Shown piece after piece: positions 3,922 to 59,013 of a stretch of DNA of 64,000 bases (the first letter of the stretch is position 1; each line of letters starts with the position of its first letter). The notes beneath the pieces are model-generated. The model made no database searches. It was not told the DNA's origin and saw nothing but the letters and a program-made list of their open reading frames with translations. This DNA comes from Escherichia phage vB_EcoM_01. Both the position numbers and the translations under genes were made by a program. The stretch lies in sequence record PP129558; one strand, 5' to 3'.

Positions 3922-4019
3922 AAGGAGGAAGATTATGGCTACTTTTCAACAACTGAAAGATGTTTCACGTTTAGTAAGAAAAATCCGAGAAGCAGACGCT
4001 GCTGCTGTCTCTTATACAN

Positions 4020-4609
4020 NNNNNNNNNNNNNNNNNNNNNNNNNNNNNNNNNNNNNNNNNNNNNNNNNNNNNNNNNNNNNNNNNNNNNNNNNNNNNNNNN
4101 NNNNNNNNNNNNNNNNNNNNNNNNNNNNNNNNNNNNNNNNNNNNNNNNNNNNNNNNNNNNNNNNNNNNNNNNNNNNNNNNNNNNNNNNNNNNNNNNNNNN
4201 NNNNNNNNNNNNNNNNNNNNNNNNNNNNNNNNNNNNNNNNNNNNNNNNNNNNNNNNNNNNNNNNNNNNNNNNNNNNNNNNNNNNNNNNNNNNNNNNNNNN
4301 NNNNNNNNNNNNNNNNNNNNNNNNNNNNNNNNNNNNNNNNNNNNNNNNNNNNNNNNNNNNNNNNNNNNNNNNNNNNNNNNNNNNNNNNNNNNNNNNNNNN
4401 NNNNNNNNNNNNNNNNNNNNNNNNNNNNNNNNNNNNNNNNNNNNNNNNNNNNNNNNNNNNNNNNNNNNNNNNNNNNNNNNNNNNNNNNNNNNNNNNNNNN
4501 NNNNNNNNNNNNNNNNNNNNNNNNNNNNNNNNNNNNNNNNNNNNNNNNNNNNNNNNNNNNNNNNNNNNNNNNNNNNNNNNNNNNNNNNNNNNNNNNNNNN
4601 NNNNNNNNN
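4020..4609. other. Assembly gap (N run) with duplicated flanks and adapter remnants
   Basis: 3856-4006 repeats at 4630-4780; CTGTCTCTTATACA at 4007-4018 and ACACCACGTCTG at 4610-4621. Confidence 0.8.
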
Positions 4610-36123: not shown

Positions 36124-36975
36124 NNNNNNNNNNNNNNNNNNNNNNNNNNNNNNNNNNNNNNNNNNNNNNNNNNNNNNNNNNNNNNNNNNNNNNNNNNNNN
36201 NNNNNNNNNNNNNNNNNNNNNNNNNNNNNNNNNNNNNNNNNNNNNNNNNNNNNNNNNNNNNNNNNNNNNNNNNNNNNNNNNNNNNNNNNNNNNNNNNNNN
36301 NNNNNNNNNNNNNNNNNNNNNNNNNNNNNNNNNNNNNNNNNNNNNNNNNNNNNNNNNNNNNNNNNNNNNNNNNNNNNNNNNNNNNNNNNNNNNNNNNNNN
36401 NNNNNNNNNNNNNNNNNNNNNNNNNNNNNNNNNNNNNNNNNNNNNNNNNNNNNNNNNNNNNNNNNNNNNNNNNNNNNNNNNNNNNNNNNNNNNNNNNNNN
36501 NNNNNNNNNNNNNNNNNNNNNNNNNNNNNNNNNNNNNNNNNNNNNNNNNNNNNNNNNNNNNNNNNNNNNNNNNNNNNNNNNNNNNNNNNNNNNNNNNNNN
36601 NNNNNNNNNNNNNNNNNNNNNNNNNNNNNNNNNNNNNNNNNNNNNNNNNNNNNNNNNNNNNNNNNNNNNNNNNNNNNNNNNNNNNNNNNNNNNNNNNNNN
36701 NNNNNNNNNNNNNNNNNNNNNNNNNNNNNNNNNNNNNNNNNNNNNNNNNNNNNNNNNNNNNNNNNNNNNNNNNNNNNNNNNNNNNNNNNNNNNNNNNNNN
36801 NNNNNNNNNNNNNNNNNNNNNNNNNNNNNNNNNNNNNNNNNNNNNNNNNNNNNNNNNNNNNNNNNNNNNNNNNNNNNNNNNNNNNNNNNNNNNNNNNNNN
36901 NNNNNNNNNNNNNNNNNNNNNNNNNNNNNNNNNNNNNNNNNNNNNNNNNNNNNNNNNNNNNNNNNNNNNNNNNNN
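36124..36975. other. Assembly gap (N run) flanked by 148-bp exact duplication
   Basis: 35976-36123 equals 36976-37123. Confidence 0.8.
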
Positions 36976-53463: not shown

Positions 53464-53844
53464 TCCATATTCNGTCTCTTATNNNNNNNNNNNNNNNNNN
53501 NNNNNNNNNNNNNNNNNNNNNNNNNNNNNNNNNNNNNNNNNNNNNNNNNNNNNNNNNNNNNNNNNNNNNNNNNNNNNNNNNNNNNNNNNNNNNNNNNNNN
53601 NNNNNNNNNNNNNNNNNNNNNNNNNNNNNNNNNNNNNNNNNNNNNNNNNNNNNNNNNNNNNNNNNNNNNNNNNNNNNNNNNNNNNNNNNNNNNNNNNNNN
53701 NNNNNNNNNNNNNNNNNNNNNNNNNNNNNNNNNNNNNNNNNNNNNNNNNNNNNNNNNNNNNNNNNNNNNNNNNNNNNNNNNNNNNNNNNNNNNNNNNNNN
53801 NNNNNNNNNNNNNNNNNNNNNNNNNNNNNNNNNNNNNNNNNNNN
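53464..53844. other. Assembly gap (N run) with duplicated flanks
   Basis: 53322-53463 repeats at 53860-54002; AGAGACAG adapter remnant at 53845-53852. Confidence 0.8.
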
Positions 53845-56000: not shown

Positions 56001-56249
56001 ATGTCTCTATTAGAAAAACACGTGTTTGAAGATGGTAACGGCAATGCAGTTTTTCTTTTCCATCCAGAAAAATACACATCTGAAAATAATGGTACAACTT
56101 CTATTGTAATCACTAAAGATGTTAAAGTTATTGATTTCTTGGCTCTGATGCGAGAGATGGATCTTGAAATTAATACTTTTAACGCAGAAGCTTTGGTTGT
56201 TGCTCTTCTGGAAAAGAAAGATAGTGAAGAAGTAGCAGAATATGCTTAA
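56001..56249 (+). CDS. Hypothetical protein
   Basis: ORF with AGGAGG RBS. Confidence 0.4.
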   Translation: MSLLEKHVFEDGNGNAVFLFHPEKYTSENNGTTSIVITKDVKVIDFLALMREMDLEINTFNAEALVVALLEKKDSEEVAEYA

Positions 56250-56256
56250 ATAACTA

Positions 56257-56286
56257 TTGACAAACGTATCCTTCATATGTTAGGAT
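56257..56286 (+). promoter_or_regulatory. Candidate sigma70-like promoter ahead of ncRNA/tRNA region
   Basis: TTGACA at 56257, TAGGAT 18 nt downstream. Confidence 0.35.
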
Positions 56287-56299
56287 ACGTTCATCAAGT

Positions 56300-56490
56300 G
56301 TGGTAACAGGGTCGTTGATTTTTGTTAAGAGGGGCTTGCACTGCGGTAGTGTTAGAGACTACTTCTTCAGAGGTTAGCTACCAAAGAGGAAAAGGAATAG
56401 TCTCGGCTCAAGAACTTTTACGCTGAAAGTTGGGCTTGGTCTTAGAGAATGTAGCGATTCTCTACAATCGTCAGCGTCTCTGTTACCACA
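56300..56490 (+). ncRNA. Candidate structured small RNA closed by a long-range helix
   Basis: GTGGTAACAG (56302-) pairs with CTGTTACCAC (56480-); internal hairpins GAGACTA/TAGTCTC and AGAGAAT/ATTCTCT; no ORF. Confidence 0.35.
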
Positions 56491-56495
56491 TTTAT

Positions 56496-56570
56496 GGCCC
56501 TGTAGCTCAATGGGAGAGCTGTCGGCTCATAACCGATAGGTAGCTGGATCGAAACCAGCCAGGGCCACCA
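56496..56570 (+). tRNA. tRNA with CAT anticodon (Met, or Ile via lysidine)
   Basis: Hand-folded cloverleaf: acceptor GGCCCTG/CAGGGCC, anticodon loop CTCATAA, CCA encoded. Confidence 0.65.
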
Positions 56571-56572
56571 AC

Positions 56573-56647
56573 GTCTTTATGGTGTAATGGATAGCACAGG
56601 AGTCTTCTAAACTCTTAGTCAAGGTTCGATTCCTTGTAAAGACACCA
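56573..56647 (+). tRNA. tRNA-Arg (anticodon TCT)
   Basis: Acceptor GTCTTTA/TAAAGAC, T-arm CAAGG-TTCGATT-CCTTG, loop CTTCTAA. Confidence 0.6.
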
Positions 56648-56844
56648 GAACATTTTAACATGAATTAGCTCAAGTGATTTGAACCCACTACTGATCATGG
56701 TGGCAGAGAATGAGGCAAGTATGTCAGACATTATAAACAAAGGCCACGGTTATATTAGAAGACATAAATGCTCGAAGAGCACCGTTCGTGGAGAGCGGGG
56801 GTTGGTGGAGTCACCATTCATGGTAAAATGTTTTAAAAAACTAT

Positions 56845-56879
56845 TGACAACTAACATTATTTTATGTTAGATTATAAGT
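56845..56879 (+). promoter_or_regulatory. Sigma70-like promoter upstream of tRNA-Ser genes
   Basis: TTGACA at 56845; TTAGAT/TATAAG -10 candidates; upstream A tract. Confidence 0.4.
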
Positions 56880-56881
56880 AT

Positions 56882-56972
56882 GGAAGGGCAAATCGACGTG
56901 GCGACGAAAACGGTCTTGAAAACCGCCGAGCTTGAAAGAGCCTTGGGAGTTCGACTCTCCCTCCTTCCGCCA
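56882..56972 (+). tRNA. tRNA-Ser (anticodon TGA), long variable arm
   Basis: Acceptor GGAAGGG/TCCTTCC, loop CTTGAAA, T-arm GGGAG-TTCGACT-CTCCC; D-arm irregular. Confidence 0.55.
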
Positions 56973-56977
56973 GATTA

Positions 56978-57063
56978 GGTAGATTGGTGAAATGGTAGCC
57001 ACGACAGTTTGCTAAACTGTAGTCGGAAACGGCGTGTAGGTTCGAGTCCTACATCTACCGCCA
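56978..57063 (+). tRNA. tRNA-Ser (anticodon GCT), long variable arm
   Basis: Acceptor GGTAGAT/ATCTACC, anticodon arm ACAGT-TTGCTAA-ACTGT. Confidence 0.7.
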
Positions 57064-57193
57064 AGTTCTTTTTAATGTAGCTTACTTTAGCAGAGTAAAT
57101 CTTCGGCAAGTGGCGGTAACCACTTTACCGATACCTCATAGTTAGTGGTGAGAACACTGGCTATTTTAAAAAGAATTTAAATATTAGTATTTA

Positions 57194-57281
57194 GGTGAGT
57201 TAATTCCGTAGGGGTAGCGGGGCAGACTGTAAATCTGTTATCATTGCGATTCGGGTGGTTCGACTCCATCACTCACCACCA
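57194..57281 (+). tRNA. tRNA-Tyr (anticodon GTA), long variable arm
   Basis: Acceptor GGTGAGT/ACTCACC, loop CTGTAAA. Confidence 0.6.
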
Positions 57282-57287
57282 AATTAA

Positions 57288-57373
57288 GATGAGTTGGCTG
57301 AATGGTTTAAGCGGCGGACTGTTAATCCGTGTTCGAAAGAACAATATAGGTTCGAATCCTATACTCATCGCCA
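57288..57373 (+). tRNA. tRNA with long variable arm, anticodon uncertain (best fold reads GTT)
   Basis: Acceptor GATGAGT/ACTCATC, T-arm ATAGG-TTCGAAT-CCTAT; D-arm poorly formed. Confidence 0.45.
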
Positions 57374-57463
57374 GAATTATGGACTTGTAGAGTTAAGGTA
57401 AACCCCCAGTCGCCAATAGGCTTCTGGAATTGCAGGTATCGAATCCTGCCGAGTCCCAGCATT

Positions 57464-57538
57464 GCTCCTATAGTATAATGGCTATTACAACGGTTTTGTA
57501 ATCCGTGGATCTCTGTTCGATTCAGTGTGGGAGCACCA
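57464..57538 (+). tRNA. tRNA-Thr (anticodon TGT)
   Basis: Acceptor GCTCCTA/TGGGAGC, loop TTTGTAA, T-loop TTCGATT. Confidence 0.55.
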
Positions 57539-57811
57539 ACACAACATTAAGAGCACTGTGATTGATCGTCGTATCCTGTGCACAAGGTCTGCTCGAAAGA
57601 CAGTGTTCTTAGTATTGTGTTGATCACAAAAAGAGTCACCCGAAACTTGACCGGAGTAGGGTTGGATGGGGCAAAATGAGAAGCGGCTCTCCCATCGACA
57701 GCAACGAAGAATAATATTTGACTTTGGTTTTGTATTATTTTAAGTTAGCTTACCGAACGTAGGGCTAGTCACCCAACGGGATACTCGTCACTGTCCCAAT
57801 CAATAAAAGTC

Positions 57812-57840
57812 TTGACAACAAATAGTAAAATGTAGTATAG
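57812..57840 (+). promoter_or_regulatory. Sigma70-like promoter (TTGACA-N16-TAGTAT) inside tRNA region
   Basis: Motif upstream of tRNA-Gly. Confidence 0.45.
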
Positions 57841-57852
57841 TAAATATATAGG

Positions 57853-57926
57853 GCGTTCTTGGTGTAGCGGTAGCATTCCGTCCTTCCAAGTCGGCGGCAC
57901 GAGTTCGATCCTCGTAGAACGCTCCA
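57853..57926 (+). tRNA. tRNA-Gly (anticodon TCC)
   Basis: Acceptor GCGTTCT/AGAACGC, T-arm ACGAG-TTCGATC-CTCGT, loop CTTCCAA. Confidence 0.6.
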
Positions 57927-58024
57927 AATTATTTAATAAAGGGTTGCCAGAAAACTTTCTCTTTTACTCATGGTTTTCTCCTTCTCTCACACTTCTTCTG
58001 GTTGCCCTTCATTAAATGATTTAT

Positions 58025-58100
58025 TGGTTTGTAGTGTAGTCCGGTAGCACACGACACTTTGACTGTCGTAGGTTTGGTTCAAATCCAGACAGACCAGCCA
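58025..58100 (+). tRNA. tRNA-Gln (anticodon TTG)
   Basis: Acceptor TGGTTTG/CAGACCA, anticodon arm CGACA-CTTTGAC-TGTCG. Confidence 0.65.
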
Positions 58101-58267
58101 TATAACGGAATTTAGCTCAGTTTGGTAGAGCGTACGCTTTGGGAGCGTAGGGTCGCAGGTTCGAATCCTGCAATNCNGACAGACCAGCCATATAACGGAA
58201 TTTAGCTCAGTTTGGTAGAGCGTACGCTTTGGGAGCGTAGGGTCGCAGGTTCGAATCCTGCAATTCC
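58088..58267. repeat. Exact ~90-bp tandem duplication spanning tRNA-Gln 3' end and tRNA-Pro, N bases at junction (probable assembly artifact)
   Basis: 58088-58177 equals 58178-58267; Ns at 58175 and 58177. Confidence 0.7.
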
Positions 58268-58272
58268 GACCA
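58196..58272 (+). tRNA. tRNA-Pro (anticodon TGG); a redundant copy at 58106-58182 lacks a proper 3' end
   Basis: Acceptor CGGAATT/AATTCCG, anticodon arm TACGC-TTTGGGA-GCGTA, T-loop TTCGAAT. Confidence 0.65.
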
Positions 58273-58278
58273 ATTAAA

Positions 58279-58352
58279 TGTTTCGTAGTTCAATGGTAGA
58301 ACCCACGACTGATAATCGTGAGACACAAGTTCGATTCTTGTCGAAACAACCA
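58279..58352 (+). tRNA. tRNA-Ile (anticodon GAT)
   Basis: Acceptor TGTTTCG/CGAAACA, anticodon arm CACGA-CTGATAA-TCGTG. Confidence 0.7.
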
Positions 58353-58430
58353 GTTTCCCGTTAGACTTACAGGATAAGAGATCCACAATTTATTGTGACG
58401 CTGGTTCGAATCCAGCACGGGATACCTAAT

Positions 58431-58509
58431 AGCGGGATAGAGGAGTCTGGTCGTCCTCGCCAGTTTCATATGCTGGAGATCATTGGTTCAAATCCAATTC
58501 CCGCCTCCA
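58431..58509 (+). tRNA. Second tRNA with CAT anticodon (Met/fMet or Ile2), A1-C72 mismatch
   Basis: T-arm ATTGG-TTCAAAT-CCAAT, anticodon arm CCAGT-TTCATAT-GCTGG. Confidence 0.5.
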
Positions 58510-58623
58510 AATATCGCTTGCCAGCGGTATCTTTGAAGACCTTGCCTGGTTCCTTCTAAGATGGAGGGGTGCGACTCCTTAACGCACAATTATAATAAAT
58601 CATTTCAAATTAACAGTATTTAT

Positions 58624-58650
58624 TAGCCTCCTTATTGGAGGCTTTTTGCT
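58624..58650 (+). terminator. Rho-independent terminator after tRNA cluster
   Basis: AGCCTCC-TTATT-GGAGGCT + TTTTT. Confidence 0.55.
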
Positions 58651-58666
58651 ATCTATTGAATAAAAC

Positions 58667-58695
58667 TTGACTTATTATTTTTTATATGTTAAGAT
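58667..58695 (+). promoter_or_regulatory. Sigma70-like promoter (TTGACT-N17-TAAGAT)
   Basis: Motif upstream of gene 58717. Confidence 0.4.
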
Positions 58696-58716
58696 AAAGT
58701 TTAGGAGGATTTTATT

Positions 58717-59013
58717 ATGCCTAAACTAAAACGTGGTCGTGGAAGACCAACAGCCGAAATGCAACAGATTTACGCAATGGATGCGGCGCAAGCAAGTGTA
58801 AAAGAATTATTTGCAGAGCATTATTTAGAAGCTATGCGGTATATTGTTGAACTTGTTAATGATAAGGATGCAGCAAAACCTCTCCGCTTCCAAGCAGCTA
58901 AAGCTATTAAAGAGCAAGTAGAAGAATGGTTAGAAGAACATTATGAAGCTATGGAAGAAGAAACCCCTGCCGTGCAGAATACAGATGACGTTCCTAAAAA
59001 GATCGTAATCTAA
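58717..59013 (+). CDS. Hypothetical protein with N-terminal RGRGRP basic motif (possible DNA-binding)
   Basis: AGGAGG RBS; KRGRGRPT AT-hook-like motif. Confidence 0.45.
   Translation: MPKLKRGRGRPTAEMQQIYAMDAAQASVKELFAEHYLEAMRYIVELVNDKDAAKPLRFQAAKAIKEQVEEWLEEHYEAMEEETPAVQNTDDVPKKIVI

Follow-up and report, generated by a model that had tools for sequence, protein, structure and literature searches.

The tRNA gene cluster of the virulent coliphage T4 is a tandem, same-strand array that also includes two small stable RNAs that are not tRNAs. These RNAs, rnaD (species 2) followed by rnaC (species 1), are located directly after tRNA-Arg, with rnaD beginning 2 nt after it, and are co-transcribed with the tRNAs, while rnaC ends in a tRNA-like T arm. 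We know of no resolved function for rnaC or rnaD, and the question has become more interesting since phage tRNAs were found to act against immune systems that cleave tRNAs. Here, we describe a comparable array in Escherichia phage vB_EcoM_01 (sequence record PP129558), analyzed as a 64,000-nt stretch of DNA (hereafter, the window), in which 12 distinct tRNA genes are found on the plus strand at positions 56496-58509. Taken with the explanation developed below, the locus is very probably the tRNA operon cluster of a virulent phAPEC8-like myophage of the genus Phapecoctavirus. More than half of this “tRNA region” (∼1.2 kb of 2.35 kb) is conserved, unannotated, structured RNA that is not tRNA. 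These elements, designated leader, S2, S3, S4a-c, tL1, HP (a long hairpin), tL2, and trailer, may be co-transcribed stable small RNAs analogous to rnaC and rnaD, as suggested by their conservation and covariation, and are easily testable candidates for the question raised by T4, in phages that can be grown and engineered with little difficulty.

As in T4, the array is tandem and on one strand, and it has seven isotypes in common with T4 (Ile, Arg, Ser, Thr, Gly, Gln, and Pro). The Ile-CAU, Arg-UCU, Ser-UGA, Thr-UGU, Gly-UCC, Gln-UUG, and Pro-UGG tRNAs correspond in isotype to seven of the eight T4 tRNAs, and their T4 counterparts carry the same anticodons. S2, known here from sequence alone, is likewise co-oriented and directly follows tRNA-Arg(UCU), and both tL1 and tL2 end in a T arm as rnaC does. 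The array differs from that of T4 in having at least seven non-tRNA elements, internal promoters, and five additional tRNAs (Ser-GCU, Tyr, Asn, Ile-GAU, and an initiator-like Met), and in lacking Leu-UAA. Homology of S2 to rnaC or rnaD was rejected, as a covariance model of S2 found nothing significant in the T4 cluster, and T4 was not among the matches listed in blastn searches with the other elements. A literature search on stable small RNAs encoded within tRNA gene clusters of phages yielded nothing relevant. A more distant precedent than T4 is provided by ROOL and GOLLD, large ornate, structured non-coding RNAs of phages and prophages that are often located in or beside phage tRNA clusters (PMC12286853). 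Like the spacers described here, these are structured RNAs at phage tRNA islands, but their length is 500-800+ nt and their Rfam models gave no match here, whereas the present elements are 75-200 nt long and unrelated in sequence. ROOL and GOLLD act by self-association, and it may be speculated that a UGAUCA loop in S2 would permit the same.

The closest described loci are the annotated clusters of Phapecoctavirus (phAPEC8, AV126, Mt1B1_P17, ESCO13, and others), which share the locus and gene order at 97-99% identity. The region 56200-58720 matched 296 phage records, the best match being Escherichia phage AV126 (Stephanstirmvirinae, Phapecoctavirus) with 98.9% identity. Both AV126 and Mt1B1_P17 have 11 tRNAs annotated at this locus, and 10-11 tRNAs are the rule in genome papers on the genus (PMC7862966, PMC10793346). 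Because close relatives carry it annotated with 10-11 tRNAs, the array itself is already known; dozens of genomes of coliphages that are candidates for therapy have it annotated, and it conforms to classical codon compensation. The annotations inspected include 10-11 of the present tRNAs but leave out tRNA-Ser(UGA), and some drop tRNA-Tyr or, as in Mt1B1_P17, mark both Tyr and the second Met as pseudo, while the first CAT tRNA is mostly labeled Met. None of the records inspected or listed annotates the non-tRNA elements as RNA, and a few place spurious “hypothetical protein” coding sequences (CDSs) there. The new findings are the conserved structured RNA that annotations overlooked or mislabeled as small hypothetical proteins, the recurrence of S2 and S4a by tRNA genes in unrelated phage groups, and the conservation of the non-decoding look-alikes tL1 and tL2 at the level of real tRNAs. 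Several tRNA identities are also corrected (Ile2, initiator-like Met, unannotated Ser-UGA, class-II-shaped Asn, and an artefactual second Pro). For annotation, this means adding tRNA-Ser(UGA), relabeling the first CAT tRNA as Ile2, dropping the spurious CDSs, and treating the second tRNA-Pro as an artefact.

The default setting of ARAGORN called 11 tRNAs on the plus strand at 56496-58509. The Rfam tRNA model (RF00005) backed the ARAGORN calls above the gathering score and added tRNA-Tyr(GTA) at 57194-57278 with 39 bits, and ARAGORN at a threshold of 90% (-ps90) called both tRNA-Ser(TGA) at 56883-56972 and tRNA-Tyr(GTA) at 57198-57281. The anticodons are, in order, CAT, TCT, TGA, GCT, GTA, GTT, TGT, TCC, TTG, TGG, GAT, and CAT. 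A preliminary description, made by hand-folding of the sequence, had proposed an array of at least 12 tRNA genes, which is borne out by the 12 distinct genes recovered by ARAGORN and/or Rfam, and every cloverleaf is backed by these tools. Its list of anticodons agrees exactly, with the long-variable-arm tRNA that it left uncertain now identified as GTT (Asn). The statement that most of the genes encode CCA was correct in kind and understated in extent, as CCA is encoded in 12 of the 12. Also supported is the overall picture, a tRNA array that contains internal promoters and structured spacers and is closed by a terminator, while the annotated relatives, the tRNA-Pro artefact, a third promoter with a leader of ∼200 nt, and the nature of the spacers as discrete conserved RNAs are additions of the present analysis.

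For comparison within the genus, phiWec179 and PsgM04F (Phapecoctavirus, ∼20% diverged) served as the diverged lineage. The array is mosaic: in these two phages, the Tyr, Asn, and Pro tRNAs (and Thr in one) have been swapped for non-orthologous copies or lost (42-74% identity), while the non-tRNA elements tL1, tL2, HP, and S4a between the swapped tRNAs are 95-100% identical. The leader, S2, S3, the rest of S4, and the trailer are 79-85% identical with their folds retained. Most of the tRNAs are 95-100% identical in the same comparison. Three spacers had been noted as having hairpin potential (56648-56880, 57064-57193, and 57540-57850), and this holds: the fold z-scores, calculated against shuffled sequence, were -3.9 for 56648-56881 and -3.9 for 57061-57193, and 57540-57850 harbors the S4 hairpins. 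Rfam 15 had no overlapping match to the leader, S2, S3, S4a-c, tL1, HP, or tL2 at E ≤ 1 or at gathering thresholds. The sole match to the YrlA/Y RNA-like family (RF02553) scored 22.7 bits against a gathering score of 69 and was located over ordinary tRNAs (58217-58336).

The S2 RNA (56648-56835, ∼188 nt) begins at the base right after the CCA of tRNA-Arg and folds into a multi-helix junction closed by a 16-bp stem (z = -3.9). Among 15 sequences from two phage subfamilies, pairing was retained in 98.1% of cells, compared to 37-46% when the partners were slid, and 19 of the 49 pairs were compensated, compared to 2-5 with slid partners; the observed covariation was reached by none of 500 shuffles. 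Several single-stranded blocks are invariant (UUAGCUCA, GAGAAUGAG, and UCGNAGAG), together with a 7-nt loop, CUGAUCA, at 56696-56702. The palindrome UGAUCA within this loop, which at the DNA level contains a GATC Dam site, was invariant in 15 of 15 sequences and may be a kissing-loop site for dimerization of S2. Homologues were identified in Seunavirus, which belongs to another subfamily, and in Klebsiella phage 05F01, with one copy per phage. In 05F01, S2 lies tightly between tRNA-Met/Ile2-CAT and tRNA-Leu-UAA, and in Seunavirus it is followed by tRNA-Leu-UAA either directly or after an intervening HNH endonuclease gene. A 24-base gapped pattern for S2 was found in none of the GTDB genomes and in four metagenome and four IMG/VR contigs, nearly all of which are from ∼95-150-kb phage genomes or are short fragments; a narrower pattern gave three matches.

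The surroundings of S2 vary among its homologues. In SSE121, an HNH homing-endonuclease gene (L012, 516-1010) is inserted exactly between S2 and tRNA-Leu(UAA), and PVP-SE1 has an unannotated stretch of 490 nt at that same place (L005, 3686-4171). In GAP31, 4MG, FENT2, and Csp-D17, S2 adjoins the tRNA or is only a few nucleotides away from it.

The leader RNA (56296-56493, ∼198 nt) extends from near the predicted transcription start to 2 nt before the first tRNA, and has an invariant 22-bp closing stem and four internal hairpins (z = -5.05). RNAalifold identified 70 pairs, 9 of them compensatory, across three lineages that are ∼20% diverged. Matches to the leader were confined to close relatives (70 phage records, 64 of them with ≥ 95% identity). 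The S3 RNA (57064-57193, z = -3.9 for 57061-57193) has a core at 57063-57178 with an 18-bp closing stem and three hairpins, in which 8 of the 39 pairs are compensated, and the slot after Ser-GCT is also filled in 05F01 and in Justusliebigvirus PHB05. The 3' trailer (58510-58600, z = -3.65) carries conserved hairpins and is 90% identical in Justusliebigvirus at 58519-58588. On a conservative reading, the leader, S2, and S3 may be insulation or processing modules. A GUUAGCU motif is repeated within the leader, S2, S3, and S4.

The element tL1 (57381-57457) is a tRNA-like RNA with no anticodon loop and no CCA, as indicated by its fold and conservation. The fold comprises a 7-bp acceptor stem together with D-like and T arms, and a tetraloop (AAUA or AAGA) caps the “anticodon” arm. 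Although neighboring tRNAs have been swapped in phiWec179 and PsgM04F, tL1 is 95-97.5% identical there, and it is 96.7% identical in the same slot of the sister genus Justusliebigvirus, where the adjacent tRNA-Asn is only 74% identical. It was found in 87 phage records, 85 of them at ≥ 95%, and is unannotated in all but one listed annotated record. The second such RNA, tL2 (58355-58427, 96% conserved), likewise folds without an anticodon loop and has a canonical T arm, an acceptor stem mismatched at 1:72, a D-like arm, and a 5-bp “anticodon” stem with a tetraloop, and its 3' end is ACCU and not ACCA. The few positions at which relatives differ in tL1 and tL2 are located within tetraloops or junctions or at the mismatched position 72. 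Neither had an Rfam tRNA match at E ≤ 1, and ARAGORN called them only at -ps80, with non-canonical loops and both as “Leu-CAA”. The possibility that they are real tRNAs was ruled out by C33/A33 with U37, the lack of a class II arm, A73, and CCA, and the varying “anticodon” loop. Further T-arm-bearing tRNA-like stretches without an ARAGORN call were seen in the PHB05 array (L028, 1-200 and 2534-2679; e.g., …GGGGTTCGATTCCTCACCTTGCTGCCA), and uncalled tRNA-like RNAs may be common in such arrays.

The HP element (57927-58024) is a hairpin of ∼27 bp with a 43-nt pyrimidine-rich loop (z = -5.85 for 57924-58024). Its loop (57953-57995; …CUCAUGGUUUUCUCCUUC…) is perfectly complementary to GAAGGAGAAAACCAUGAG, which combines an ideal ribosome-binding site and a start codon. 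HP is 99% identical in phiWec179 and PsgM04F, while in the Gly-HP-Gln slot of PHB05 the loop is ∼92% kept and the stem is different in sequence yet forms a 25-bp helix (z = -5.3). A second copy of the loop target was not found at ≤ 3 mismatches in a search that was limited to the window and included neither the host nor the remainder of the phage genome. On the minus strand, HP (57984-57934) contains AAGGAG-N6-ATG followed by 12 codons (MSKRESFLATLY). A minus-strand mini-gene is nevertheless considered unlikely, as the open reading frame (ORF) differs in frame and length between genera (a compensated frameshift, with 12 vs. 8 codons) and no minus-strand promoter was found.

The S4 region begins with S4a (57539-57622), a hairpin of ∼85 nt with a 22-bp stem that is 100% identical in four lineages (z = -3.8) and has the conserved core GAUUGAUCGUCGU..UCCUG.GC.CAAGGUCUGYUCGAAG. 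Across three phage groups, 7 of the 24 pairs are compensated. A lambdoid-type Klebsiella phage has a homologue (L029, 1490-1578) ∼180 nt beyond the end of a tRNA array that is itself located downstream of antiterminator Q; the Rfam search over this region matched tRNAs only and not S4a. In Skatevirus (L030 and L031, ∼1180-1275), S4a is on the strand opposite to ORFs annotated as part of the tail module, and 28 IMG/VR contigs (L032-L059), mostly of 30-50 kb, carry it as well. In lambdoid-type, prophage-like contigs, it is positioned 3' of antiterminator Q and tRNA genes and often adjoins tRNA-Arg(TCT). In about a dozen IMG/VR contigs, tRNA-Arg(UCU) starts just after S4a or ends ∼180 nt before it. 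The 3' strand of S4a in the lambdoid-type copies reads UGCUCUUU, the first 8 nt of rrn boxA. This boxA-like reading was set aside as a lead toward NusB/NusE and antitermination, as the motif is not conserved in the window copy and is base-paired. Downstream, S4b (57634-57700) and S4c (57756-57805) are conserved small hairpins that together span 57634-57805, with a variable segment at 57700-57755 between them.

Among the tRNAs themselves, the two genes with a CAT anticodon had been left as initiator and elongator Met or a lysidine-dependent Ile2. The first gene (56496-56570, CCA encoded; ARAGORN and Rfam) is of the Ile2 type, judged from two features of its sequence, namely a CAU anticodon with the acceptor pairs described here, and homology. 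Its acceptor stem, GGCCCUG/CAGGGCC, contains C4:G69 and C5:G68, pairs that Ikeuchi and colleagues reportedly described in 2005 as the TilS determinants separating tRNA-Ile2 from tRNA-Met. Its first 18 nt are identical to those of T4 tRNA-Ile, and the GGCCC acceptor is common to E. coli ileX and T4 tRNA-Ile, whereas E. coli metT has U4 and A5 instead; it aligns with ileX, not with metT or metZ. The nearest E. coli homologues, genes annotated as tRNA-Ile in 40 E. coli genomes, are 83-84% identical. In addition, ATA is one of the three codons most enriched in the phage. C34 would be converted to lysidine, and the tRNA would then be charged by IleRS and decode AUA.

The second CAT gene (58431-58509; ARAGORN, Rfam, fold, and alignment to metZ) derives from an initiator tRNA and is initiator-like. 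Its acceptor stem, AGCGGGA…UCCCGCC, has an A1xC72 mismatch (C1 vs. A72 in E. coli), G2:C71, and C3:G70, and shares xGCGGG with metZ, as it does the D stem (GAGG/CCUC) with A11:U24 and the T-loop UUCAAAU. Its anticodon stem, CCAGU/GCUGG, retains only G30:C40 of the three G:C pairs of the initiator (29-31:39-41), and the discriminator is U73 and not A73. Because the three G:C pairs are missing and U73 is present, it was not classified as a canonical initiator. The gene is flagged as pseudo in one relative and is 96% conserved in Justusliebigvirus. Accordingly, the Ile2 alternative holds for the first CAT gene and the initiator alternative holds in part for the second, whereas no elongator tRNA-Met was found among the tRNAs of the array.

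The tRNA-Ser(TGA) gene (56882-56972, class II, CCA encoded) has an atypical D region and was recovered with the tRNA-Sec model and by ARAGORN at -ps90. The tRNA-Sec model gave 37.4 bits for 56882-56968, under the threshold of that model, and the anticodon loop is CUUGAAA. An identity as tRNA-Sec or a suppressor was ruled out by the UGA (Ser) anticodon, the 7/5 acceptor/T arrangement, and tRNA-Ser homologues. In an alignment with tRNA-Ser genes of other phages, T4, and E. coli, 16 of the 22 cloverleaf pairs are compensated. Homologues with 75-90% identity are found in phages whose hosts differ widely, namely in Erwinia phage phiEa21-4, in Pectobacterium, T5-like, Acinetobacter, and Streptomyces phages, and in Synechococcus phage S-CRM01; several of these are likewise unannotated or marked pseudo, while others are annotated as tRNA-Ser. 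The tRNA-Tyr(GTA) gene (57194-57281, class II; Rfam 39 bits and ARAGORN -ps90) has an atypical D arm and is annotated in one relative and marked pseudo in another. The remaining genes were identified by both ARAGORN and Rfam; apart from tRNA-Asn, described below, they are Arg(TCT) at 56573-56647, which is 100% identical in diverged relatives, class II Ser(GCT) at 56978-57063, Thr(TGT) at 57464-57538, Gly(TCC) at 57853-57926, Gln(TTG) at 58025-58100, the genuine copy of Pro(TGG) at 58196-58272, and Ile(GAT) at 58279-58352.

The tRNA-Asn(GTT) gene (57288-57373; ARAGORN and fold comparison) is class-II-shaped. It has the long stemmed variable arm of class II tRNAs but a GUU anticodon in place of one for Ser, Leu, or Tyr. 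The body is Ser-like: the D stem has 3 bp, the variable arm forms a 4-bp stem with a GAAA loop, and position 73 is G. Its D, T, and variable arms are similar to those of T4 tRNA-Ser, while the anticodon arm is identical to that of E. coli asnT over 19 nt. The stem of the variable arm covaries in seven phages, including Klebsiella phage 05F01 and several Seunavirus. As the GUU anticodon and G73 are determinants for AsnRS and a long arm is the hallmark recognized by SerRS, this tRNA carries both AsnRS determinants in addition to a SerRS-type long arm. Such a tRNA is not peculiar to this phage, as 757 phage records match it, including T5-like and T4-like phages, and it is present in many phage records across groups, so that it can be regarded as a widespread phage lineage. 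Genes of 83-86 nt are found in T5-like S133 and T4-like Jiaodavirus, and long-arm tRNA-Asn occurs in Stephanstirmvirinae, Vequintavirinae, T5-like, and T4-like phages (e.g., L026, 1496-1578; L027, 596-680; L005, 6107-6191). The literature searched contained no description of a class II tRNA-Asn in phages. Allo-tRNAs likewise combine a Ser-like long-arm body with a non-Ser anticodon, but their acceptor/T-stem arrangement is 8/4 or 9/3 (Mukai et al., 2017; PMC5389517), whereas the present tRNA-Asn has the standard 7/5 together with a GUU anticodon and G73. This lineage, with representatives in four enterobacterial phage groups, may be a route to nuclease evasion or to changed identity rules.

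A different type of elongation was seen in tRNA-Lys(TTT) of Seunavirus, which is 84-87 nt long (L005, 5960-6045; L011, 6140-6226; L013, 5925-6008; L014, 6239-6322). The extra length comes from ∼12 nt inserted in the D loop (GGUGACGCAAGUCGAAGG) rather than from a variable arm; both PrrC and PARIS target tRNA-Lys.

Putative transcription signals divide the array into three units. Promoter P1 (56257-56286, TTGACA-18-TAGGAT with a TG-extended -10) is located upstream of the first tRNA, separated from it by the structured leader of ∼200 nt. Promoter P2 (56844-56873, TTGACA-18-TAGATT) would initiate transcription 0-3 nt 5' of tRNA-Ser(TGA), and promoter P3 (57812-57841, TTGACA-18-TATAGT) matches 11 of the 12 consensus positions. 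The two internal promoters proposed at 56845 and 57812 were thus recovered at 56844 and 57812, each with a perfect TTGACA, an 18-nt spacer, and TAnnnT, and the terminator placed at 58624 was found as a GC-rich hairpin (58625-58643) followed by a T run (AGCCUCC-UUAUU-GGAGGCU then UUUUU, 58625-58648). P1 and P2 share the repeat TTAAA.AACTATTGACAA, P2 is kept in phiWec179 and PsgM04F, and P3 is kept in relatives. The motif TTGACA-N14-TATGTTAGA(T/G) is common to promoters of Phapecoctavirus (56257-56290 and 56844-56880) and Justusliebigvirus (L028, 1660-1700 and ∼355-395), and a degenerate copy, TTGACT…TTTAAGTTAGCTT, is present at 57719-57750 within the variable part of S4.

From this arrangement, three host sigma-70-type promoters may generate three polycistronic plus-strand precursors. 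The first would consist of the leader, Ile2(CAU), Arg(UCU), and S2, and the second of Ser(UGA), Ser(GCU), S3, Tyr(GUA), Asn(GUU), tL1, Thr(UGU), and S4. The third would comprise Gly(UCC), HP, Gln(UUG), Pro(UGG), Ile(GAU), tL2, the initiator-like Met, and the trailer before ending at the terminator. Host RNase P and 3' processing enzymes would free the 12 tRNAs, for which CCA addition is unnecessary because CCA is encoded in all of them. These cleavages would also release the spacer elements as separate small RNAs, perhaps together with cleavage by RNase III at the closing helices of 16-27 bp, and these long helices are plausible as RNase III or insulation modules.

The codon usage of long ORFs in the window (13,161 codons, 38.8% GC) was compared with that of a 50-kb sample of E. 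coli K-12 (13,748 codons, 52% GC). Enrichment in the phage was highest for AGA (5.0-fold), ACA (4.3-fold), and ATA (4.2-fold), followed by AGG, CCT, AGT, TGT, CTT, GGA, CGA, AAT, TCT, TAT, TTA, TCA, and ACT. The tRNAs of the array read 12 of these 16 most enriched codons (hypergeometric p = 0.0017), so that the comparison of phage and host codon usage to which the preliminary description had pointed largely matches the array. The AT-rich phage would thereby gain decoders for overused A/U-ending and rare codons, such as AGA, ACA, AUA, AGG, CCU, AGU, GGA, and AAU. Codon compensation is the best-supported function of the array; the codon statistics are directly observed, and an improvement in translation would be expected from them.

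Defense evasion may be a secondary role, by analogy with other phages. In T5, tRNA-Tyr counters the retron-Eco7 effector PtuAB, tRNA-Lys expressed by T1 and T7 counters PrrC170 (PMC11555353), and T5 tRNA-Lys counters PARIS (PMC11464382), and the action of phage tRNAs against tRNA-targeting defense has been put forward as a general hypothesis (PMC10264068). The deviant tRNAs of the array (Tyr, Ser-UGA, class-II-shaped Asn, and initiator-like Met) could sustain translation once defense nucleases cut host tRNAs. Like the T5-type tRNA regions, the array belongs to virulent enterobacterial phages with many tRNAs, and shares with them tRNA-Tyr and the long (83-86 nt) tRNA-Asn(GTT) lineage (PMC11555353, PMC11464382); it differs in the absence of tRNA-Lys, and T5 is known from defense experiments while the present phage group is known from sequence.

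An extended form of this idea, in which the array is primarily anti-defense, is possible but in our view unlikely. In this scenario, anticodon nucleases, retron effectors, VapC-type toxins, or colicin-like enzymes would cut host tRNAs, and nuclease-resistant phage tRNAs would take their place. Such nucleases would be titrated by tL1 and tL2 as decoys, and codon matching would be secondary. Along with the published T5, T1, and T7 cases (PMC11555353, PMC11464382, PMC10264068), it is favored by the 4 of 12 tRNAs that are deviant enough for standard tools to miss or flag as pseudo (Ser-UGA, Tyr, initiator-like Met, and class-II-shaped Asn), and by the retention in tL1 and tL2 of a strongly constrained tRNA body without an anticodon. 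The initiator-like tRNA also departs from metZ in the anticodon stem, and the anticodon stem region of initiator tRNA is the site cut by VapC toxins. However, the anticodon set tracks codon enrichment in the phage and equals the classical T4 set, tRNA-Lys is absent, and the anticodon arm of tRNA-Asn is that of the host over 19 nt, the opposite of what evasion at the anticodon loop predicts. Moreover, the defense tests on which this alternative draws were made with other phages and not with this phage group.

Returning to an operon cluster whose tRNAs compensate codon usage and whose spacers are stable RNAs, several points weigh against this explanation. Promoter-like sites overall were not above shuffles (5 found vs. 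5.8 expected). Because the scan was not enriched, the case for the promoters rests on the three perfect TTGACA boxes, their strand, their position just before tRNAs, and their conservation. Ile-GAU and the Met tRNA are unexplained by codon compensation, since ATC and ATG are not enriched, and the lack of tRNA-Lys, the target of PrrC and PARIS, leaves even the secondary role in defense evasion unproven here. The class-II-shaped tRNA-Asn could be charged with either Asn or Ser. The transcription starts, the cleavages by RNase III and RNase P, and the stability of the spacer RNAs are all inferred. Finally, recent recombination in a mosaic region, and not selection, could in part account for how highly tL1, HP, and S4a are conserved.

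Because the sequence constraint on tL1, tL2, HP, and S4a is as strong as that on real tRNAs, these elements probably have a function of their own, although decoy or antisense roles are speculation. We tentatively entertain, as an idea that is rather unlikely as a whole, that the non-tRNA elements are trans-acting phage small RNAs and not processing spacers. As parts of this joint reading, tL1 and tL2 would be anticodon-less mimics titrating a defense nuclease or a processing or modification enzyme that recognizes the tRNA body, HP would be an antisense “anti-ribosome-binding-site” RNA, and S2 and S4a would be new RNA families moving with tRNA genes across 150-kb myophages, lambdoid-type temperate phages, and Skatevirus.

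It is doubtful that the spacers are instead functionless leftovers, such as decayed tRNA genes, homing-endonuclease scars, or generic precursor spacers that fold harmlessly. The resemblance of tL1 and tL2 to degenerate tRNAs would be consistent with such decay, as would the mosaic nature of the array, in which Tyr, Asn, Thr, and Pro are swapped for non-orthologous copies in close relatives, and the HNH endonuclease gene between S2 and tRNA-Leu in SSE121, with segB within the T4 cluster. However, decay would not hold 96-100% identity beside neighbors at 60-85%, nor would it account for the invariant single-stranded blocks or for the compensatory changes that preserve helices in S2 (19/49) and S4a (7/24) and the replacement of the HP stem with its loop kept. 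That the spacers encode small proteins is very improbable and was rejected, since the ORFs of 30-63 codons that overlap them, the CDSs placed on them in the WPEC, PsgM04F, and 05F01 annotations, and the AAGGAG-N6-ATG with a 12-codon ORF on the HP minus strand are outweighed by single-base indels and stops that break the 63-codon S2 ORF in phiWec179, by substitutions spread evenly over codon positions with no third-position bias (11/12/19, 6/9/6, and 6/6/8), by covarying helices, and by an HP mini-ORF that differs between genera and has no detected minus-strand promoter.

A second tRNA-Pro(TGG) gene called at 58106-58180 is almost certainly a mis-assembly. A perfect tandem duplication of 90 nt (58082-58171 and 58172-58261) spans the 3' end of tRNA-Gln and tRNA-Pro, and the defective extra call falls on its first copy (58082-58171), which lacks a proper 3' acceptor strand and CCA. 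The sequence has N at 58175 and 58177, exactly the positions at which the 3' end of tRNA-Gln can be told from that of tRNA-Pro. Only one tRNA-Pro is present in the annotated relatives examined, and the best-matching records are ∼90 nt shorter than the query across the locus and align in two pieces. There are also many other N runs in the window (4019-4609, 36124-36975, and 53483-53844), and the window is a draft assembly. The second tRNA-Pro is interpreted as an artefact because of the duplication, the Ns at the junction, the defective acceptor, the single tRNA-Pro in relatives, the shorter matches, and these other N runs.

Over the array, 98-100% identity to these E. coli phages was also seen in records labeled as “Campylobacter”, “Acinetobacter”, “Pseudomonas”, “Klebsiella”, or “Shigella” phages, and some of these host labels probably represent contaminant or mis-assigned isolates.

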